The notes beneath the pieces were generated by a model that worked only from the letters and a program-made list of their open reading frames with translations, was not told where the DNA came from and ran no database searches. From Escherichia phage vB-Eco-KMB37: 64,000 nt of DNA. Where the stretch lies: the sequence record OR525700, one strand, 5' to 3'. Positions 129 to 21,477 of the stretch are shown piece after piece (the stretch's first letter is position 1; each line of letters begins with the position of its first letter). The translations under genes and the position numbers were made by a program.

Positions 129-539
129 TTAGAATTCAGAATCATCATCTCGTGATGGATCATGTTCATTTCCGAAGTCTTCCATTTTGATATGAGAGCT
201 ACCCCAACCTGTAAAATCTTCTTCTCCAAAGTGCAAAATATCTACACCTTGATAGATTCGCTTATATTTATAGTCTTGTCGAACTGGGAAAGTATACAAT
301 GTAGTATTTGCAAACACCACACGTCGATTGTTGTTACTACGAATATTAACACCACGTTCTACTGTATAATGTCCATCGGTAGACATACCAAGCATTACTA
401 ATGCTGCTCGCAATGTAGTGTTATGATATTCGTGAGGAATTTTTCCTCCGTGCTTTTTAGCCATTTCTTTCCAGATCGGTGTAGCCTTAATGGTAGACAT
501 ACTTACGGTCGCCCAAATGGTTGTATTAATTAGTGACAT
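129..539 (-). CDS. Hypothetical protein
   Basis: 136-aa ORF with AAGGAG RBS upstream of the ATG; no recognisable motif. Confidence 0.45.
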   Translation of the reverse strand: MSLINTTIWATVSMSTIKATPIWKEMAKKHGGKIPHEYHNTTLRAALVMLGMSTDGHYTVERGVNIRSNNNRRVVFANTTLYTFPVRQDYKYKRIYQGVDILHFGEEDFTGWGSSHIKMEDFGNEHDPSRDDDSEF

Positions 540-636: not shown

Positions 637-1608
637 TCACCATTTTGTATGGTTCGTCAAAAGTTGACGATGTTGAATCCAACCACAGAAGTTTCCACTC
701 CACAAACGATGTTTACGATCCATATGTGTAATACCTTCTTCCCAAGAGGAAGGGAACGGAGGAATATTAATACCACCTTTCTGTTGTTTTAATCCTGACA
801 AATCCATTTCTTTCATTGGCGTTGCCTGGTGTTCAAACGGAGATGCATGTACCTTTTGTCCAGACAGCAAACGAGAATAGATATCCAATGCTTTATCTTT
901 AGTATCATTCAACTTACGATAACTTACCTGAGCGCAACAAGAAGCTGAAATAGCTTTTGCTTCATCTTCTGTCAACATTTTCTCGTTGGAGAAGGTTTCA
1001 CCCAAGAAATAACGGATCATACCAGTTTCTGGATCTCGATCACGATTAACGTAAGGTGTATGCCATTCCCCTGGGAAAAGAAGATATGGTTCAGAAGATT
1101 CATACAGTTTTTTAATTTCTTTAGCAAGAGCCTCAATAGTAGGATCTGCATCAGCATCTACGCGCAACCACAAGAAGTTTTCTAGCTCTGTAGTGGTTAC
1201 TACAGTCTTCATACGCTGAAATGGTTCTAGTAGTCGGTTTGCAACCTGTTTATGATAACCAGCAAGGGCAAACTCTTCTGCAAAACGTGCAGCACTTAGC
1301 GCAGCCAAGTCCCACCATTCTTTTGCAGTGTAACCTGCATCAATCAGGGCATCGTGATCTGTGCCTTTATCTTGCATACCTGGTTGGTTAGCACCAAAAC
1401 GATAAGGACGTGCTGGAGATTGCCGTACCATTTCAATTAGAGTTTTAACAGGGATAGCTCGACTTGATGCAGCATTACGAGAAAACAAACGATGCGTCAT
1501 CAATTCAGAGTGAATAATTCGAGGATATTCAAGTTCAAAGGTAACAATATCCTTACCTTCGGATGTTTGAGAGTGTGCAATAATTTTTGCTGAAATAGAA
1601 TTTGTCAT
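637..1608 (-). CDS. ThyX-like (flavin-dependent thymidylate synthase family) protein with non-canonical motif
   Basis: Motif ELMTHRLFSRNAASSRAIP resembles the ThyX RHR-x7-S signature but has THR in place of RHR; 323 aa is longer than typical ThyX. Confidence 0.5.
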   Translation of the reverse strand: MTNSISAKIIAHSQTSEGKDIVTFELEYPRIIHSELMTHRLFSRNAASSRAIPVKTLIEMVRQSPARPYRFGANQPGMQDKGTDHDALIDAGYTAKEWWDLAALSAARFAEEFALAGYHKQVANRLLEPFQRMKTVVTTTELENFLWLRVDADADPTIEALAKEIKKLYESSEPYLLFPGEWHTPYVNRDRDPETGMIRYFLGETFSNEKMLTEDEAKAISASCCAQVSYRKLNDTKDKALDIYSRLLSGQKVHASPFEHQATPMKEMDLSGLKQQKGGINIPPFPSSWEEGITHMDRKHRLWSGNFCGWIQHRQLLTNHTKW

Positions 1609-1617
1609 TATTTCTCC

Positions 1618-2322
1618 TTAAGGTAGTAAAATACTTTCAATTTCTTCCCACTGATTATCTAAACCAGTGATAATTACATTAGGAAGTTTCTTTAACTCTT
1701 CCAAGTATGGATCTTCGTAAATAGTGTTGAAATATATTTTCAACGTTTCATCTGGAAATAGGACAAGATTTTCAGCCCTATCGTCAATAGTTACGTCGCA
1801 AGGTAATAAGTATTTTTCTTTTGTTGCGAAAAAGCCATTACCAGATGTTCTACTAAAGTCCACTTTATCTAAAGATCGTGTTACGTGTCTATATTTAGAA
1901 CTAAGGTGTCCACCCTTAGTGTGGCTTGCTATAGATATATTAGCTCCATTTGCAATTATACGATGAACAACATCTGTACTATTAGGTACTACTCCCATAG
2001 TATCATATAGATGTTGGTTATCCCAAAAAGAGTAAGGATCTACACCAAATTGCTTTTTAAAATCAGGAAAATATTTCGTAATATCATAATGCACAGTCTT
2101 ATGTGCCTTATCAAATTTGATATTAGATCTACTTACCGCATTTAACCAACTCAACCATTCTATATCGGCAGGAGCTATTACTAAATCCCAATCACATACT
2201 AGACGCATTATTTCTCCTGTTATAACATTTTCTACACATTGTTTCGTAAATGTCTTCTCCTCCAATAACAATCTGTTCTTTAGAGTCGATAAGTCTAGCA
2301 TTGAAAATAGCTTTTCTTCCAC
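1618..2322 (-). CDS. Hypothetical protein (nucleotide metabolism neighbourhood); true start probably an internal Met near 2208
   Basis: 234-aa ORF; longest form overlaps the tdk 3' end by 130 nt, so a downstream start is more likely. Confidence 0.4.
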   Translation of the reverse strand: MEEKLFSMLDLSTLKNRLLLEEKTFTKQCVENVITGEIMRLVCDWDLVIAPADIEWLSWLNAVSRSNIKFDKAHKTVHYDITKYFPDFKKQFGVDPYSFWDNQHLYDTMGVVPNSTDVVHRIIANGANISIASHTKGGHLSSKYRHVTRSLDKVDFSRTSGNGFFATKEKYLLPCDVTIDDRAENLVLFPDETLKIYFNTIYEDPYLEELKKLPNVIITGLDNQWEEIESILLP

Positions 2323-2755
2323 ATTTACAAATGCTTTTCAATTCTGTAATTGAATCTGCTATGGCTAATAACCGTTCAGAACCTTCAAACAATTCTGTAG
2401 CAAAATCTGTTTTAAGCCCATAACAGAATACAGGAATATCGTAATTATCTACCACATCTCCAAGAATGTCAACCATATCTTTAGTTAGGAATTGTGATTC
2501 GTCCACAAATACTGCATCTACTGGATTTTCTTTAAGTTGTGTATAAATTTCCAGCATATCTTCTTTTGTTTTAACTGGTTTTGCTTCCTCTTTAATACCT
2601 ATCCTAGAAGCAATAGCACAACCAGATCTGGTATCTAAAGCTGAAGTTAAAAGAAGAACTTTCATATTTCTTTCTTTATAGTTCCAAGCTGTTTGTAGCA
2701 GATGTGTGCTTTTACCACTGTTCATCGGACTATATCGGAAATAAAGTTTAGCCAT
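2192..2755 (-). CDS. tdk: Thymidine kinase
   Basis: P-loop SPMNSGKST near N-terminus, VFVDESQF, C-terminal Cys cluster CKCG...CRKC; 187 aa is typical TK size. Confidence 0.85.
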   Translation of the reverse strand: MAKLYFRYSPMNSGKSTHLLQTAWNYKERNMKVLLLTSALDTRSGCAIASRIGIKEEAKPVKTKEDMLEIYTQLKENPVDAVFVDESQFLTKDMVDILGDVVDNYDIPVFCYGLKTDFATELFEGSERLLAIADSITELKSICKCGRKAIFNARLIDSKEQIVIGGEDIYETMCRKCYNRRNNASSM

Positions 2756-2800
2756 ATTTTCTCCTCTAACGCTCCCATTTGTGGGAGCGATAATACTTTA

Positions 2801-3376
2801 TTATTTCTCTTCGTCAAGAAGAATTTTTACTATTTGTTTTCTTCGCTTACTTACTGTACTTTCTGGTGAAATTCCGCGCTTCGTTAGCCAATTTTTATCC
2901 TTTTTAGACTGGCATAAAGCTATCGCTTCCTTCTCCGCTTTTGCTTCCCTGAATGTCATATCGTGCTTGTCAGCATAAGCCAGGATAGCGTTACACTGCT
3001 TACAAACTACACGCAGGTCGTCTTCTGTTACGTACAATAGGCGTAAAACAAAACTTGGGATATCTTCATAACAGGTTAATGTACCTGCTGCATTAATGTG
3101 GTCTACTTGAAAGTCTTTCATACCTCCTGTATGTCCACACAATTCACATTTACAATTCCAAACCTGTTTCGGTTTGCCTGTTTTCTTATCTAAAACTACA
3201 TTGCCATCTTTATCCAACCTATCGGCTTTAAATCGTACAGATTGGATCTTTTTTATCTTATTCGGGTGTCTCACCCATGCTTTCCTTAAGCAACCCCTTA
3301 AATATGTATAAAAGGCTGCTTGAGTTTTCCAAGGTGTTCCATCTCCCCAAATAACTTTAGGTTCTTTATTTTCCAA
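2801..3376 (-). CDS. HNH homing endonuclease
   Basis: CKCELCGH...DHINAAG...CKQCN His-Asn-His/zinc motif; free-standing between metabolic genes. Confidence 0.7.
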   Translation of the reverse strand: MENKEPKVIWGDGTPWKTQAAFYTYLRGCLRKAWVRHPNKIKKIQSVRFKADRLDKDGNVVLDKKTGKPKQVWNCKCELCGHTGGMKDFQVDHINAAGTLTCYEDIPSFVLRLLYVTEDDLRVVCKQCNAILAYADKHDMTFREAKAEKEAIALCQSKKDKNWLTKRGISPESTVSKRRKQIVKILLDEEK

Positions 3377-3560
3377 TAGTGCTCACCTTTTTAGCTACAT
3401 AATCTCCAGGTGGAATGTTATATTTAAAGAAAAGCATACGGTCTAAACCAGCCTTACACATATTTTCTGGGATTGTGATTGTATATAGGAGTTTATCTCC
3501 GCGTTTATTGTATATTTTATATACTTCACCCTCTCCGTATTGTTTACCGTGAGAAGCCAT
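3366..3560 (-). CDS. Hypothetical small protein
   Basis: 64-aa ORF in the co-directional gene string. Confidence 0.3.
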   Translation of the reverse strand: MASHGKQYGEGEVYKIYNKRGDKLLYTITIPENMCKAGLDRMLFFKYNIPPGDYVAKKVSTIGK

Positions 3561-3945
3561 CTACACTCTCCTTCAATTGTTCAATAGCATCTGCTGCTTC
3601 AATATACTTACCTTTATACATTGCTTTTAAAGCCTTACGAACAAGATCATCGTCTGTATATAAATCAATTAGTTGATTAGCTAACTCAATTTTTACAGGA
3701 TTTTTTAAGTTAGGGTAGGCTTCATACAACATATTGTAATACTTATCACTTAATTCTTTTTCAATATGAATAACGTGAATCGCTTTGTTTAGGTTGATCA
3801 CACGATCACCTTTGTTTCGACAAGCATACTTAGCTAACTTAGTGAAACAAGGAGTTGCACCAATTAGATATGCAAGTTCCAAAGGTTGCATACGCATACG
3901 TTTGTAGTGATCACCATCAATTTGAATATCCAGTGCTGTAGTCAT
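3544..3945 (-). CDS. Hypothetical protein (DUF3310-like GDHY motif)
   Basis: N-terminal IDGDHYKRMRMQP...KY.CR pattern recalled from phage DUF3310 proteins. Confidence 0.4.
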   Translation of the reverse strand: MTTALDIQIDGDHYKRMRMQPLELAYLIGATPCFTKLAKYACRNKGDRVINLNKAIHVIHIEKELSDKYYNMLYEAYPNLKNPVKIELANQLIDLYTDDDLVRKALKAMYKGKYIEAADAIEQLKESVDGFSR

Positions 3946-3985: not shown

Positions 3986-4946
3986 AAATTCCAATAACAG
4001 TGTTTACACGCTTCTCTTTGCTACGTAAATTAACACGTCCACGAGACAGGCTATTACATGATGTGCATCTTAGCACTTGGAATGTACTAACCGCTGTTGT
4101 GTAAACCTTACCAGGAACAACTTCAAGGTGCTCTTTACCGCAACGAGGACAACGAAGTTTTTCATCGTCATAGAATGCAGATACGTTAGGATGTTGTGGA
4201 ATCCATGCACGAAGTTTGATGTAAAGATCTCTAAGAGAAACAACATCACCATCGTTGTATGTTTGCATACGGAAGAAGGCATGTCTATCTCCTTCACAAC
4301 ATGCTTTCCACAAAGGAAAACCTTCATTATCAAGTTTAAAGTTTTCTGTATCAAAATACAGACACATTTCTTTAAGCGCATTAGAAGGTAGTGCAAACTG
4401 CTTCTTAGCTGCCTTGAGTGTATCAATTACAACATAATGTGATGGTGGCTCCATACCGTGAAAAGCAAAACGTTGGTTAATATAAGCCTTATCAAACTTA
4501 ATTCCGTTGTGCGCGATCACAATATCTGCATCGTCAAGCAAGTGCCAGAGATCTTGACATAATTCCCAATCATCTGTATGATCTATGTCAAACAAAGGGT
4601 AATTGCTAAGGTTCTTACCTTCTACTTCCCCTGTTTCTAAATCAGCAGATGAATAGGAAAGCAAGTAACCTCGACGAATAACTTGTTCAGGTGCAATAAA
4701 GGCTTTGAAACGTGAGAAGCTATACACAATCTCCGGTGCTGTCTCTACGTCAATAATTTTAATTACTGGCCCACCTTTATCTTGCGGAGCACCGCGATGT
4801 GGTGAATTTACACGAGCTAAGTAATCATTTACTGTGCTCTTCTTAGTAGAACTTCCCAACACCTCTTGTGCAATCTTACGCGAAGAATAACCTTGTGCTT
4901 TCATAGATACAATCAAGGCTTTCTGTTCGTCTGTTAATTTACTCAA
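3984..4946 (-). CDS. DEDD-family 3'-5' exonuclease with N-terminal HTH and C-terminal zinc ribbon
   Basis: IIDVETAPE (Exo I) and IAHNGIKFDKAYI (Exo II/III-like) motifs; N-terminal sigma-region-4-like HTH; CPRCG...CTSCN at C-terminus. Confidence 0.6.
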   Translation of the reverse strand: MSKLTDEQKALIVSMKAQGYSSRKIAQEVLGSSTKKSTVNDYLARVNSPHRGAPQDKGGPVIKIIDVETAPEIVYSFSRFKAFIAPEQVIRRGYLLSYSSADLETGEVEGKNLSNYPLFDIDHTDDWELCQDLWHLLDDADIVIAHNGIKFDKAYINQRFAFHGMEPPSHYVVIDTLKAAKKQFALPSNALKEMCLYFDTENFKLDNEGFPLWKACCEGDRHAFFRMQTYNDGDVVSLRDLYIKLRAWIPQHPNVSAFYDDEKLRCPRCGKEHLEVVPGKVYTTAVSTFQVLRCTSCNSLSRGRVNLRSKEKRVNTVIGI

Positions 4947-5977
4947 TGTTCCTCCTGCTCTGAAATATATGCTTGTAGCATACTTTCAAAAGTTGTTTCA
5001 TCATTCGCCCAACGTTTCATATATACCAACTGAAAAATTGTCTCTATCCATTCATCAGTTGTCATTTCTACTTCTTCACCATCCCAAGAAGTAAATTTAA
5101 CGCCGTCTGGGAACCATTCATAATACTGATCTTTAACTGTCTGAAAAAGTTCAGCCTGTGTTTTACATTTGGAAATAAGATTAAAGCAAGTAATATCTCC
5201 AAACTTAACATCGAAATCTTGGTAAGGTCGAATACTATCTGTCTTATCGCCCATTAGCATTTGATAAGCTAACCAGTAACTACCCCAACCCTTAACTTCT
5301 TTTTTCTTACCTTTTTCTACGATCCAGATATCACCGATAGATTCATCAATCAGAATAACACAAGGATTTTTATAAACACCATCCTCTTTATAAAAGTTAA
5401 AGAGTAAACTCGGTGTGTGTAAGCTATCTTTGTCGATAGATGCTACAATATGAGAAAACTTACCAGTTTCCTTGTAGGCTTTATACCCTGCATATCCATA
5501 GATTTCTAAAGCATCATCTGCCTCAATACCAGTAACAACGTCACCGTTATGTTTTTCAACTAGATAATCTTTAGTATCTGATAATTGGATTGGTCTTAAA
5601 TCTGATCGCTCTGATTTATATTCTTTTGGCATTTTGAAAGAATGCCGGAAGGTTTTTCCTACCCCGATGACACCGCAATACTTTTGAAGTTTTAGGTGAT
5701 CCACCATCTGGGTTATTTTTGTCTTTGCAGCTTGAAACGTAAAAGAAATATTCTCTGGGACTATTTGAACATCTTTTATTTCAAAATCTTCTTTGGAGAA
5801 CAACTTCTTACCAGCAGCTTCGCGTTGCGCGTTAAGTGCTCCTAACCATCCTCCAATATTTTTTGAAGATTTACCCCAAAAATCTGTTCTTGTTTCAAAC
5901 TCTTTTACATTACCGGAAGCCTTGTGTACAGCGTGGATTTTTCTTTGTTCTAAAGCTGAAGACGCTTGGAACGCCAC
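4943..5977 (-). CDS. Putative FEN-like 5'-3' exonuclease
   Basis: GIEADDALEIYGY and VASIDKDSL motifs resemble the Pol I 5'-nuclease GYEADD / SGDKD signatures. Confidence 0.45.
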   Translation of the reverse strand: MAFQASSALEQRKIHAVHKASGNVKEFETRTDFWGKSSKNIGGWLGALNAQREAAGKKLFSKEDFEIKDVQIVPENISFTFQAAKTKITQMVDHLKLQKYCGVIGVGKTFRHSFKMPKEYKSERSDLRPIQLSDTKDYLVEKHNGDVVTGIEADDALEIYGYAGYKAYKETGKFSHIVASIDKDSLHTPSLLFNFYKEDGVYKNPCVILIDESIGDIWIVEKGKKKEVKGWGSYWLAYQMLMGDKTDSIRPYQDFDVKFGDITCFNLISKCKTQAELFQTVKDQYYEWFPDGVKFTSWDGEEVEMTTDEWIETIFQLVYMKRWANDETTFESMLQAYISEQEEH

Positions 5978-18694: not shown

Positions 18695-18780
18695 GCAAGT
18701 GTGGTGGAATTGGTGATACACATTGTGCTTAAAACGCAACGCTTAAATGATTGAGGGTTCGAATCCCTCCACTTGCACCA
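18695..18780 (+). tRNA. tRNA-Leu (anticodon TAA), type II
   Basis: Acceptor GCAAGTG/CACTTGC, loop CTTAAAA, long variable arm, T-arm GAGGG-TTCGAAT-CCCTC, CCA encoded. Confidence 0.7.
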
Positions 18781-18782
18781 AC

Positions 18783-18890
18783 GCCTAGTAGGGTATTTGG
18801 TAATTCCGAGGCCATCAAAGCCTGAAAAATATGTTAGACCGTTTTGTCTAACTAAATACGAAATATGGTTCGATTCCATAACTAGGCTCC
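18783..18890 (+). tRNA. Atypical tRNA-like element (about 107 nt)
   Basis: Perfect 7-bp acceptor pairing GCCTAGT/ACTAGGC and T-arm TATGG-TTCGATT-CCATA, but about 32 nt too long, with an extra 7-bp hairpin GTTAGAC/GTCTAAC; anticodon not resolved. Confidence 0.3.
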
Positions 18891-18923
18891 CGATTTAAAT
18901 AGTAATTTTTTAATAAAAATATC

Positions 18924-18952
18924 TTGACATTTACTTAGTTTTTTGTTATAGT
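18924..18952 (+). promoter_or_regulatory. Sigma70-like promoter
   Basis: TTGACA-N17-TATAGT. Confidence 0.55.
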
Positions 18953-18963
18953 CATTATGAAAA

Positions 18964-19045
18964 CGGGGTGTATCTCACCTGACTTCTAATCAGGCGTTAA
19001 CCGAGTAATTGGAGTATGCAGGTTCGAATCCTGTCACCCCGGCCA
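18964..19045 (+). tRNA. Atypical tRNA-like element (anticodon-like loop TCT, Arg-like)
   Basis: Perfect acceptor CGGGGTG/CACCCCG, stem-loop CCTGA-CTTCTAA-TCAGG, T-arm GCAGG-TTCGAAT-CCTGT, CCA; no canonical D-arm and a 24-nt insert before the T-arm. Confidence 0.35.
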
Positions 19046-19063
19046 AAAAGTTTTAAAAACTAC

Positions 19064-19092
19064 TTGACAAGCAAGATAGTTTTATGTTAGAT
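19064..19092 (+). promoter_or_regulatory. Sigma70-like promoter
   Basis: TTGACA-N17-TTAGAT. Confidence 0.5.
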
Positions 19093-19108
19093 TTAAAGTA
19101 TGGTAACA

Positions 19109-19198
19109 GGAAGGTAGGGCGCAGCGGTGCGCAACCAGGTTTGAACCCTGGCCCATTGTAGCGATACGGTGATGGTTCGACTCCATTATCTTCCTCCA
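19109..19198 (+). tRNA. tRNA-Ser (anticodon TGA), type II
   Basis: Acceptor GGAAGGT/ATCTTCC, anticodon arm CCAGG-TTTGAAC-CCTGG, long variable arm, CCA. Confidence 0.65.
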
Positions 19199-19216
19199 AA
19201 TTCGCTTAGGAGCTTT

Positions 19217-19369
19217 ATGAATTATAAAACTATTGGACAGGTTGTTACCGGAGTTAAGATTGTAGATAATAAAGTTGTTTATGAGTATTCTAATCTTCAA
19301 CAATCTGAAGATGGTAAAAATATTCGTATGGTAAAAGCAGAACAAAAAGATTCCGGTTGTTTTGAATAA
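19217..19369 (+). CDS. Hypothetical small protein (50 aa)
   Basis: AGGAG RBS then ATG at 19217; the longer track ORF would start inside the preceding tRNA. Confidence 0.35.
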   Translation: MNYKTIGQVVTGVKIVDNKVVYEYSNLQQSEDGKNIRMVKAEQKDSGCFE

Positions 19370-19377
19370 TTAATAAC

Positions 19378-19463
19378 GGTAGATTGGTGAAATGGTAGCC
19401 ACAACAGTTTGCTAAACTGTAGTCGGAAACGGCGTGTAGGTTCAAGTCCTACATCTACCGCCA
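19378..19463 (+). tRNA. tRNA-Ser (anticodon GCT), type II
   Basis: Acceptor GGTAGAT/ATCTACC, anticodon arm ACAGT-TTGCTAA-ACTGT, long variable arm, discriminator G, CCA. Confidence 0.7.
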
Positions 19464-19597
19464 AGTTATCTTTAATGTAGCTTGTAATCTTACTTTAATA
19501 GAGTAAATCTTCGGCAAGTGGCGGTAACCACTTTACCGATACCCTAATACTTCATAGTCAAGTGCCGCAAACACTGGCTATTTTAAAGATAATTTAT

Positions 19598-19673
19598 ACA
19601 TCGTTAGCTTAGTTGGTAGAGCAAGGGGCTTTTAACTCCAAGGTCGAAGGTTCGAATCCTTCACGATGTACCA
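19598..19673 (+). tRNA. tRNA-Lys (anticodon TTT)
   Basis: Acceptor ACATCGT/ACGATGT, loop CTTTTAA, T-arm GAAGG-TTCGAAT-CCTTC, CCA. Confidence 0.7.
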
Positions 19674-19678
19674 AACAC

Positions 19679-19765
19679 GTAGGTATCGCATAGCGGCAAT
19701 TGCTGGAGACTGTAAATCTCCTGCCCTTCGGGGCTTCGTTGGTTCGAGTCCAACTACCTGCACCA
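19679..19765 (+). tRNA. tRNA-Tyr (anticodon GTA), type II
   Basis: Anticodon arm GGAGA-CTGTAAA-TCTCC, long variable arm, T-arm GTTGG-TTCGAGT-CCAAC, CCA. Confidence 0.7.
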
Positions 19766-19772
19766 AATTAAA

Positions 19773-19857
19773 GATGGATTGGCCTAGTGGTTGGGCGACG
19801 GACTGTTAATCCGTGAACGAAAGTTCTAGCAAGGTTCAAATCCTTGATCCATCGCCA
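19773..19857 (+). tRNA. Type II (long-variable-arm) tRNA with Asn anticodon GTT
   Basis: Perfect acceptor GATGGAT/ATCCATC, 3-bp D-stem, anticodon arm ACGGA-CTGTTAA-TCCGT, 15-nt variable arm with GAAC-GAAA-GTTC hairpin, discriminator G, CCA. Confidence 0.6.
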
Positions 19858-19864
19858 GAATCAT

Positions 19865-19941
19865 GGACTTGTAGAGTTAAGGTAAACCCTCAGTCGCCAA
19901 GAGGCTTCTGGAATTGCAGGTATCGAATCCTGCCGAGTCCA
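19865..19941 (+). tRNA. Atypical tRNA-like element (anticodon unresolved)
   Basis: Acceptor GGACTTG/CGAGTCC pairs well; T-loop has 8 nt (TATCGAAT); no clean 5-bp/7-nt anticodon arm; no encoded CCA. Confidence 0.3.
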
Positions 19942-19947
19942 ATTATT

Positions 19948-20022
19948 GCTCCTATCGTATAACGGCTATTACGGTTGCCTTGTAAGCAACTTATCAGGGT
20001 TCGAGTCCTTGTGGGAGCACCA
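19948..20022 (+). tRNA. tRNA-Thr (anticodon TGT)
   Basis: Acceptor GCTCCTA/TGGGAGC, anticodon arm GTTGC-CTTGTAA-GCAAC, CCA. Confidence 0.7.
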
Positions 20023-20045
20023 ATTTTAACTCTAAAGGAGTGTAT

Positions 20046-20369
20046 GTGACAGAAAAAGAGTTAGAGAAATATTTTAATATCAATGTTTTCGATGGTTTTG
20101 ATGATATTGAAGATGTTGAAAGATATTATGAAGTAGAGTTAGATAAGGATAACATTGTAATTCTTTCTGCCACTTATGATTGTGCATATTATGAAGGTGA
20201 ATCTCACGTTTATTTTTATGATATGAAAACATCTTTGTTTTATGAAGTACACGCATATCATTGTTCTTGTTATGGTTTAGAAGGTCAGTGGGAACCTGAA
20301 GAAATAGGTGATTTGGACTTTACTATTGCATATCTAAACAGACGTGGTGCATCTACTATTTTAAAATAA
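20046..20369 (+). CDS. Hypothetical protein
   Basis: AAGGAG RBS; likely GTG start at 20046 (track start 20040 lies inside the RBS). Confidence 0.45.
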   Translation: MTEKELEKYFNINVFDGFDDIEDVERYYEVELDKDNIVILSATYDCAYYEGESHVYFYDMKTSLFYEVHAYHCSCYGLEGQWEPEEIGDLDFTIAYLNRRGASTILK

Positions 20370-20383
20370 ATATCAAAAGCCTC

Positions 20384-20413
20384 TTGACAAAGGGGCTAAT
20401 AATATGTTAGAGT
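20384..20413 (+). promoter_or_regulatory. Sigma70-like promoter
   Basis: TTGACA-N17-TAGAGT-like. Confidence 0.5.
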
Positions 20414-20424
20414 AATATTGTTAA

Positions 20425-20499
20425 GCGGGTATAGTGTTAATGGTAGCATATGAGGTTTCCACCCTCCAGGTGCAGGTTCAAGTCCTGTTACTCGCTCCA
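20425..20499 (+). tRNA. tRNA-Gly (anticodon TCC)
   Basis: Acceptor GCGGGTA/TACTCGC, loop TTTCCAC, T-arm GCAGG-TTCAAGT-CCTGT, CCA. Confidence 0.7.
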
Positions 20500-20517
20500 A
20501 GATTATTTAAATGGAAT

Positions 20518-20570
20518 CGCTAGAGAAAATTTCTCTTTTCGCTCATGGTTTTCTCCTTCAAACTCTAGCG
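20518..20570 (+). other. Structured spacer between tRNA-Gly and tRNA-Gln (nested inverted repeats)
   Basis: Outer 8-bp inverted repeat CGCTAGAG...CTCTAGCG enclosing hairpin GAGAAA/TTTCTC. Confidence 0.3.
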
Positions 20571-20598
20571 GTTCTTTTTAAGTGATTTTTAGTTTTAT

Positions 20599-20673
20599 TG
20601 GAGATTAGCCTAGTGGGAAGGCAACGGCCTTTGAAGTCGTGATGACTAGGTTCGATTCCTAGATCTCCAGCCA
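20599..20673 (+). tRNA. tRNA-Gln (anticodon TTG)
   Basis: Acceptor TGGAGAT/ATCTCCA, anticodon arm ACGGC-CTTTGAA-GTCGT, T-arm CTAGG-TTCGATT-CCTAG, CCA. Confidence 0.75.
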
Positions 20674-20680
20674 ATATTTA

Positions 20681-20756
20681 CAGTGCGTAGCGCAGTTGGT
20701 AGCGTGGGAGCTTTGGATGCTTCGGGTCGCAGGTTCGAGTCCTGCCGCACTGACCA
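20681..20756 (+). tRNA. tRNA-Pro (anticodon TGG)
   Basis: Acceptor CAGTGCG/CGCACTG, anticodon arm GGAGC-TTTGGAT-GCTTC, T-arm GCAGG-TTCGAGT-CCTGC, CCA. Confidence 0.75.
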
Positions 20757-20761
20757 AATTT

Positions 20762-20836
20762 GCAGAGATAGCTGAGACGGATTAGTGCTACCCTGAAAAG
20801 GTAGAAAGGATGGATCGTTACCATCTCTCTGCACCA
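20762..20836 (+). tRNA. tRNA-Phe (anticodon GAA)
   Basis: Acceptor GCAGAGA/TCTCTGC, anticodon arm CTACC-CTGAAAA-GGTAG, CCA. Confidence 0.7.
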
Positions 20837-20913
20837 AATAACACCATCCAAGGAGTAGACTTGGTTAACTGTCAATAGCACATTGAGGCTTCTTACAGTG
20901 GTGTACTTATTAT

Positions 20914-20998
20914 GGCTAAGTGGTGGAATGGTATACACGATACGCTTAGAACGTATTGCCCCAGTGGATTGTGAGTTCGAGTCTCACCTTAGCTACCA
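20914..20998 (+). tRNA. tRNA-Leu (anticodon TAG), type II
   Basis: Anticodon arm ATACG-CTTAGAA-CGTAT, long variable arm, T-arm GTGAG-TTCGAGT-CTCAC, CCA. Confidence 0.7.
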
Positions 20999-21085
20999 TA
21001 TCTAAGAGATATCATAGGGTTTGCAACGGATATCTACCGTCCTATTAAGGATACCACGCCAAGACGGGTTATAAAGGGTTAGCCA

Positions 21086-21161
21086 TTGATAGTGTGAAGC
21101 TGGCGTTTCGAGTGCTTTCATAAGGCATTGCGAGAAGAGTTCGATTCTCTTACTATCAACC
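21086..21161 (+). tRNA. tRNA with CAT anticodon (Met or Ile2)
   Basis: Acceptor TGATAGT/ACTATCA, loop TTCATAA with wobble-containing stem, T-arm AAGAG-TTCGATT-CTCTT, CCA. Confidence 0.55.
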
Positions 21162-21177
21162 AAATTACTACAGATTG

Positions 21178-21256
21178 CGCGGGATAGAGGAGTCTGGTCG
21201 TCCTCGCCAGTTTCATATGCTGGAGATCATCGGTTCGAATCCGATTTCCGCCTCCA
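21178..21256 (+). tRNA. tRNA with CAT anticodon (Met or Ile2), boundaries approximate
   Basis: D-stem AGGA/TCCT, loop TTCATAT, T-arm ATCGG-TTCGAAT-CCGAT; acceptor pairing imperfect. Confidence 0.5.
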
Positions 21257-21332
21257 ATAAATACCTCCCTTCTGGTGTAATGATTAAATTACATTGACAC
21301 TTCAAGGAACTCATAGCCGGGTAGATTTAAAA

Positions 21333-21397
21333 GAGTATGGTACTCAATATGGCTCCAAACCATAGATCAAGGGGTTCGATTCCTCACCTTGCTGCCA
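21333..21397 (+). tRNA. Possible tRNA-Trp (anticodon CCA), 5' boundary uncertain
   Basis: Anticodon arm TATGG-CTCCAAA-CCATA and T-loop TTCGATT plus CCA are clear; no acceptable 5' acceptor strand found with a normal D-arm. Confidence 0.3.
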
Positions 21398-21401
21398 ATA
21401 T

Positions 21402-21477
21402 TGTGGTATCGTACAGATGGTTAGTACACTCGACCGATAATCGAGAAACAACGGTTCGACTCCGTTTACCACGACCA
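21402..21477 (+). tRNA. tRNA-Ile (anticodon GAT)
   Basis: Acceptor TGTGGTA/TACCACG, D-stem GTAC/GTAC, anticodon arm CTCGA-CCGATAA-TCGAG, CCA. Confidence 0.7.

Follow-up and report, generated by a model that had tools for sequence, protein, structure and literature searches.

Flavin-dependent thymidylate synthases of the ThyX type are antibacterial drug targets whose mechanism is still debated, with current models giving weight to Tyr91 and Arg78 in flavin chemistry and in the gating of the folate site. In canonical ThyX (PF02511; for instance T. maritima TM0449 and the M. tuberculosis and PBCV-1 enzymes), a helical module carrying S30 and H53 precedes the core and is N-terminal to the RHR motif, the whole protein measuring about 220–250 aa. 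The canonical enzyme is a homotetramer with bound FAD, and three subunits contribute to the formation of its active sites. Phages may instead encode ThyA, which usually travels with DHFR. In the T. maritima enzyme, S30 makes a hydrogen bond to the flavin C4=O, H53 comes from a third monomer and stacks on flavin or folate, R78 stabilises the anionic reduced flavin, and Y91 latches H53 and may act as general acid; flavin oxidation in Y91 mutants is reportedly 1000-fold slower (PMC11940539). PolB, the polyoxin UMP/dUMP methylase (PDB 4p5a), is collinear with ThyX and serves an antibiotic pathway rather than a phage replication module.

The closest relatives of the protein described here form the N4 gp30-like family (part of PHROG 85), which includes proteins of rV5, ICP1 (gp193), PAK_P3 (gp65), PaP1 (gp110), phiCbK-like phages and N4-like roseophages, and whose usual database label is ‘putative thymidylate synthase’. 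The protein under study belongs to this family, with 40–72% full-length identity to other members, and databases already contain its gene under this label; it is hence no new protein. A full-text search of journals available without subscription returned no relevant report on permuted ThyX or on ‘ThyX-like’ phage enzymes, an earlier description elsewhere being possible. Nor did the searchable literature yield enzymatic or genetic experiments on any member of what we refer to below as the permuted clade.

We analysed a window of 64,000 nt from Escherichia phage vB-Eco-KMB37 (OR525700), a phi92-like coliphage (genus Justusliebigvirus). The first 6 kb of the window share 99.0–99.2% identity with phi92, VEcB, PaulScherrer and about 50 other records, and the product of the gene of interest is 99.7% identical to Phi92_gp078. 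The gene is part of a long run of minus-strand genes (Table 1), and the gap between its ATG and the stop codon of the nucleotidase-like gene upstream is 9 nt. Its ribosome-binding site overlaps that stop codon (1618–1620), and the phi92 annotation places an AGGAG ribosome-binding site at the same spot. An earlier note on this DNA, made from the letters alone, had put the gene next to thymidine kinase; the two are indeed close and in the same direction, but they are one gene apart, with the nucleotidase-like gene in between.

Table 1 Features of the ThyX-like gene, its product and its surroundings. Coordinates refer to the window unless another record is named. Residue equivalences (T. maritima ThyX numbering first, window protein second) are predicted from alignments; conservation was scored in 68 diverse family members with 37–75% identity to the window protein, unless a count is given.
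Feature	Coordinates	Strand	Basis or remark
Permuted ThyX-like protein gene, 323 aa, orthologue of Phi92_gp078	637..1608	-	complete, including stop codon
Residues 1–175: N-terminal strand and ThyX core (approximately T. maritima ThyX 57–200)	1084..1608	-	Pfam Thy1 and hhalign
Variant ThyX motif, residues 38–53, THRLFSRNAASSRAIP	1450..1497	-	family alignments
NFLWLR, residues 144–149	1162..1179	-	holds N144 and R149
Residues 176–213: family-specific beta-rich linker with invariant GEWHxP element (H183, P185)	970..1083	-	AlphaFold, conservation
Residues 214–265: putative relocated helical module (approximately ThyX 12–61; S229 = S30, H254 = H53 in HASPFEH)	814..969	-	HMMER, hhalign, de-permutation
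Residues 266–323: family-specific 58-aa C-terminal extension with conserved WSGNFxGWIQxRQL element, R314 invariant	640..813	-	conservation
Ribosome-binding site AAGGAG	1614..1619	-	read from sequence; 6 nt upstream of the ATG of the 637..1608 gene
HAD-type 5'(3')-deoxyribonucleotidase-like gene, Phi92_gp079	1618..2208	-	directly upstream, same direction; Pfam NT5C, phrog_420, phi92 annotation
Thymidine kinase gene	2192..2755	-	two genes upstream, same direction; Pfam TK 185 bits; phrog_592
HNH endonuclease gene	2801..3376	-	phrog_1985; between thymidine kinase and replication genes
136-aa gene, Phi92_gp077	129..539	-	directly downstream; phrog_15711; function unassigned
tRNA gene cluster (15 genes; tRNA-Met, tRNA-Ser and tRNA-Leu each occur twice)	18695..21477	+	lies just past the switch in GC skew and transcription direction (about 14–16 kb)
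Split gene of phage FPSV-D7 (MW421580.1, locus L093)	3153..3872, 2315..3139, 1939..2328	-	three parts
H79, H39			invariant
R80, R40			conserved in family consensus
S83, S43			conserved in family consensus
N85, N45			invariant
S88, S48			invariant
R90, R50			invariant
R147, R125	1234..1236		invariant
N169, N144			FAD binding; invariant
R174, R149			uracil binding; invariant
S30, S229			invariant
H53, H254			invariant
R74, S34			replaced
Q75, E35			replaced
R78, T38			replaced; T in 223/225 members
E86, A46			replaced; A, S or other small residue in family
Y91, A51			replaced; A in 225/225 members

For the nucleotidase-like product, the match to Pfam NT5C (22.5 bits) falls slightly below the 24.8-bit cutoff, and the phi92 annotation gives the gene a length of 591 nt, a start at 2208 and a predicted function. 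Its start is ambiguous: the longest open reading frame (1618..2322, GTG at 2322) would overlap thymidine kinase by 130 nt. The N-terminal CDWDLV of its product is compatible with the HAD motif DxDx[TV]. The combination of a nucleotidase with thymidine kinase and a thymidylate synthase is unexplained. In phi92 and VEcB, further HNH endonuclease genes break up the nucleotide-metabolism region, for example between nrdA and nrdB.

Profile searches identified the 323-aa protein as an ordinary member of a very large, mainly phage family. It matched PHROG 85 (‘thymidylate synthase’) with 366 bits, and tblastn returned full-length relatives in 1034 phage records, among them rV5-like phages, ICP1, PB1-, PAK_P3- and PaP1-like Pseudomonas phages, N4 (gp30) and N4-like phages, phiCbK-like Caulobacter phages and roseophages. 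At E ≤ 1e-3, an exhaustive search through 1.84 billion cluster representatives matched 4969 clusters; the count at E ≤ 1e-30 was 1493. Pfam Thy1 (PF02511) scored 37 bits (cutoff 24.8; E 3.9e-9), with residues 22–170 aligned to profile positions 59–186 of 191, and the NCBIfam equivalog model TIGR02170 (thyX) reached 35.8 bits, below its curated cutoff of 87.9 bits.

Two side observations concern the records of relatives. The gene of the rV5-like phage ECP26 appears split in BFVD (245 + 97 aa); we treated this as specific to that record, since the gene of its close relative FV3 is a single unbroken CDS of 327 aa. In PAK_P3, the 124-aa gp66 immediately downstream of the homologue (4904..5278 of locus L084) belongs to PHROG 3506 and is likewise labelled ‘thymidylate synthase’; it has no Pfam match, its label is possibly an annotation carry-over, and no counterpart was seen beside the gene in the window.

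A search of the PDB with the single 323-aa sequence gave no match, and a family profile was required to align the protein with structures. Compared with PDB sequences by HMMER, profile positions 25–54 aligned with T. maritima chain residues 73–102, around the RHR motif, and positions 131–177 with chain residues 167–213, the R174 region. Positions 213–258 (SxSCCAQVSYR...vHASPFEHQA), in turn, aligned with chain residues 30–73, that is, the N-terminal helices ending in GHETPFEH. This last alignment was weak taken by itself, with a HMMER domain score of 5.9 bits and an hhalign probability of 20% in the native order and 62% for the isolated module. The collinear arrangement, with the S30/H53 helices ahead of RHR, was not found in the window protein; rather, as judged from the alignments, the S30/H53 module is relocated to the C-terminal side of the core. 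The placement of the module behind the core explains why the Pfam match is partial and where much of the extra length comes from. The earlier note had recognised the extended length correctly (323 aa against about 220–250 aa for canonical ThyX) and passed over the main structural point, namely that the sequence is not collinear with ThyX.

Restoring the canonical order strengthened the match. Moving residues 205–262 in front of residue 20 raised the Pfam Thy1 score from 37 to 47 bits in a single stretch spanning profile positions 13–186, whereas an irrelevant circular shift, used as control, lowered it to 29.6. For profile–profile comparison, the comparator consisted of 73 canonical ThyX proteins from bacterial genomes, the canonical sequences having been drawn from 80 genome loci; genome loci were used because a protein-database search with a 73-aa T. 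maritima fragment gave six fragments only. In the native order, hhalign aligned residues 21–178 with canonical columns 57–208 (core alignment score 55.5, P 3e-7) and, in a second alignment, residues 221–259 with canonical columns 24–60 (score 31.8). In the de-permuted order, these gave way to one 182-column alignment with a score of 82.3 and a P of 8e-12. Five control rearrangements—the C-terminal extension in place of the module, the module reversed, and the module inserted after residue 60, 115 or 175—scored 42–64, comparable to the 56 of the core alone. The swapped motif order recurred in each of the 204 family members with both motifs recognisable, as opposed to the canonical order in 64 of 64 canonical ThyX proteins. 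In terms of three-dimensional fold the protein qualifies as a ThyX, and we hold it very likely that it has this fold in permuted form.

To the parts shared with canonical ThyX, the window protein adds the linker and the conserved C-terminal extension. Residues 1–19 form a single strand in the AlphaFold monomer model, which also shows linker strands at 188–191, 198–202 and 210–212. For residues 1–19, 176–213 and 266–323, no counterpart was detectable in canonical ThyX or in the rest of the protein. A search for traces of tandem duplication likewise returned no similarity between the C-terminal extension and the core, the N-terminal strand and the module, or the linker and the canonical N-terminus. 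Circular permutation through duplication and fission followed by re-fusion are therefore both compatible with the present layout.

Which parts of the active site survived the rearrangement? The altered signature that the earlier note had pointed out was confirmed in a protein above the Pfam Thy1 threshold: compared with RHRxxSxNExSxRY, the motif THRLFSRNAASSRA retains H, R, S, N, S and R, while R78 has become T, E86 A (Ala or Ser in the family) and Y91 A, so that the full motif is consistently absent across the family, whose members share the permuted order and a THR...SSRA signature. Next to it, R74 is Ser and Q75 is Glu. Alignment to PF02511 with mapping of the active site, which that note had proposed as a check, thus yielded a mixed outcome, with predicted equivalents for H79, R80, S83, N85, S88, R90, R147, N169, R174, S30 and H53 and replacements at R78, E86 and Y91. 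All the dUMP-binding residues (S88, R90, R147 and R174) have counterparts, in S48, R50, R125 and R149. The same holds for the flavin and folate contacts (H79, R80, N85, N169, S30 and H53), among whose counterparts R40 alone stands outside the list of invariant residues. Read from these alignments, the contacts to nucleotide, flavin and folate are present, and the two residues to which mechanistic weight is given in the T. maritima enzyme are systematically absent. Conversely, G77, M78, K120, H183, P185 and R314 are invariant in the family and lack a canonical counterpart, and R30, R231 and others are nearly invariant; R30 lies one helical turn ahead of the R74 position.

The most conserved catalytic sites of active enzymes are the characteristic homing targets of inteins. 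Some homologues of the window protein carry inteins, recognised by Pfam Intein_splicing together with HNH or LAGLIDADG domains (sequences P0141, P0133, P0139, P0247, P0234 and P0162, all outside the window). Five insertion sites were found, at H33|S34, R40|L41, S48|S49, just after R149-x-H, and at H254|A255, and each is at most three residues away from a mapped active-site residue, an independent hint at a function for both segments.

In twelve records of Flavobacterium psychrophilum phages (FPSV-S29 and the FPSV-D series), the gene occurs in a naturally split form. The first open reading frame (239 aa) comprises the N-terminal strand, motif and core and ends just past GEWHIPF; a GIY-YIG/NUMOD1 homing endonuclease gene occupies the middle; and the last open reading frame (129 aa) corresponds to family positions 215–312, i.e. 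module plus C-terminal extension (probability 98.8%, E 6e-17). In sixteen sister phage records (FpV4, Fpv1–3 and others) the gene is apparently uninterrupted, the match beginning at residue 30 of the 129-aa open reading frame. The C-terminal extension thus stays with the relocated module in the split gene, and the break lies in the linker between core and module; both parts can therefore be separate polypeptides. Such separation would fit the role that His53 plays in trans in the canonical tetramer, and it speculatively suggests that fission and re-fusion could have made the new order. The copy in the window, as opposed to these family members, is unsplit and without intein.

The genomic neighbourhood points to nucleotide synthesis. 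In phi92, the gene is accompanied by the nucleotidase-like gene, thymidine kinase and genes for the aerobic ribonucleotide reductase subunits and thioredoxin, the last two lying, in the phi92 record, just past the edge of our window. Across distant phages, the homologue is found near ribonucleotide reductase (PAK_P3, ICP1 and CcrBL10), a dNMP kinase (CcrBL10), a dCTP deaminase three genes upstream (N4) and replication nucleases, and in roseophages it lies near a dCMP deaminase (PMC2784036). Expression of the PaP1 homologue is high, and infection is accompanied by a rise in thymidine, a correlative observation only (PMC5377924). We considered a conserved small partner protein and rejected the idea, as the small open reading frames flanking the gene in N4, ICP1, PAK_P3, CcrBL10 and phi92 are unrelated families; no equivalent of Phi92_gp077 was seen adjoining the homologues in N4, ICP1, PAK_P3 or CcrBL10.

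In the complete genome of VEcB, which is 99% identical across the region, the annotation lists neither a second thymidylate synthase nor a DHFR. When we queried by tblastn with E. coli ThyA and FolA, neither the VEcB genome nor the window returned a homologue at E < 1, with nothing below E = 7 for ThyA. The absence of both is expected for a user of ThyX, because ThyX regenerates tetrahydrofolate and not dihydrofolate. As a separate observation, phi92-like phages carry an RmlABCD-like pathway to dTDP-rhamnose and a row of four glycosyltransferases adjoining the replication genes (outside the window; phi92 record 24.5–27.8 kb, locus L001 4525..7786; VEcB 101.2–104.4 kb, locus L088 1234..4410), with the host surface and DNA as candidate targets.

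Taken together, we consider it probable that the gene encodes a flavin-dependent thymidylate synthase of the ThyX type, belonging to a large, permuted and mainly phage clade, and that it serves dTMP synthesis. The earlier note had allowed that the protein could still be a thymidylate synthase, and this is the best-supported reading; the invariant arginines that would read uracil O4 and phosphate argue for dUMP as substrate. The predicted role, dTMP for phage DNA, is the same as that of ThyA, with fold and mechanism being unrelated. By analogy with ThyX biochemistry, the protein would act as an oligomer with bound FAD, the flavin being reduced by NAD(P)H. Methylene-tetrahydrofolate would stack on H254 and its carbon would pass via flavin N5 to C5 of dUMP, held in place by R50, R125 and R149, to give dTMP and tetrahydrofolate; with tetrahydrofolate as product, dihydrofolate reductase would not be needed. 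The tasks of Arg78 and Tyr91 have probably been taken over by family-invariant residues, the candidates being R30, K120, H183, Y230/R231 and R314; alternatively, the relocation of the His module may make the Tyr91–His53 latch unnecessary. Co-expression with the nucleotidase-like, thymidine kinase and ribonucleotide reductase genes, all in the same direction, would presumably provide more dTTP for phage replication. Against a dTMP synthase speak the failure to reach the TIGR02170 cutoff, the loss of both Arg78 and Tyr91, and the presence of ThyA in the host. With a ThyA of the host's own at its disposal, the phage has no strict need for thymidylate synthase activity.

A first alternative is a ThyX-fold enzyme with changed chemistry, one that would make 5-hydroxymethyl-dUMP by incomplete reduction or use another acceptor (dCMP, or UMP as PolB does) and so feed a modified base or another pathway. 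The earlier note had raised a paralog adapted to a different pyrimidine chemistry along these lines, for which we found no support and which we regard as unlikely. R50, R125 and R149, the arginines expected to recognise uracil ring and phosphate, are invariant; the family spans 1034 phage records, including N4, rV5, ICP1 and PB1- and PAK_P3-like phages; and PolB is no closer a match than true thymidylate synthases. While only phi92-like phages have the dTDP-sugar and glycosyltransferase genes, the enzyme occurs much more widely. Moreover, the BASEL study found Vequintavirinae and phi92-like phages to be ‘exceptionally susceptible’ to restriction-modification despite putative dTDP glycosylation machinery (PMC8594841), and such high restriction sensitivity argues against a modified pyrimidine in the DNA of phi92-like and rV5-like phages. 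Somewhat less probable still is the specific proposal that loss of Arg78 and Tyr91 alters flavin-mediated methylene transfer, for example towards non-reductive release of 5-hydroxymethyl-dUMP or towards another acceptor.

It is also improbable, to a slightly greater degree, that the protein is a catalytically dead or regulatory relative of ThyX that binds dUMP, FAD, folate or host enzymes and redirects nucleotide pools without producing dTMP. The lost Y91 and R78 and the ThyA supplied by the host would suit such a role, but nine equivalents of active-site residues in two separate segments are invariant among sequences just 37–50% identical, inteins target exactly these positions, as is typical of active enzymes, and the gene is kept in thousands of clusters and within nucleotide-synthesis modules. 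Least of all do we credit the view that this is a ThyX in the ordinary collinear order whose motif has diverged and whose C-terminus has gained an unrelated domain, the match of residues 214–265 to the ThyX N-terminus being coincidental. The module match is weak alone, but nothing else in the protein could supply the essential S30/H53 helices (residues 1–19 being one strand without a match). With the canonical order restored, the hhalign score rises by 26 units and the P-value improves by four orders of magnitude, a gain not seen when the module is reversed, another segment is moved or the insertion point is changed. The residues aligned to S30 and H53 are invariant in the family, and in some members an intein directly follows H254.

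The permuted clade is, on present evidence, a new structural variant of ThyX, with a swapped module order, another solution for two residues, and split and intein forms. For phage genome annotation, the ‘thymidylate synthase’ label rests on a partial match, and the protein falls short of the curated equivalog model. Should the protein be an ordinary dTMP synthase, it would be a modest structural curiosity, of interest to ThyX enzymologists and phage genome annotators and overturning nothing; were methylene transfer altered, the clade would stand for a widespread, overlooked pyrimidine-modifying activity in phages. The clade also illustrates how domains might come to be rearranged through homing endonucleases and inteins. 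Finally, because the predicted binding residues are kept while Tyr91 and Arg78 are absent and the His53 module is elsewhere on the chain—in some Flavobacterium phages even on a separate polypeptide—these more than 1000 phage genomes constitute a natural experiment that bears on which elements of the ThyX active site are indispensable.
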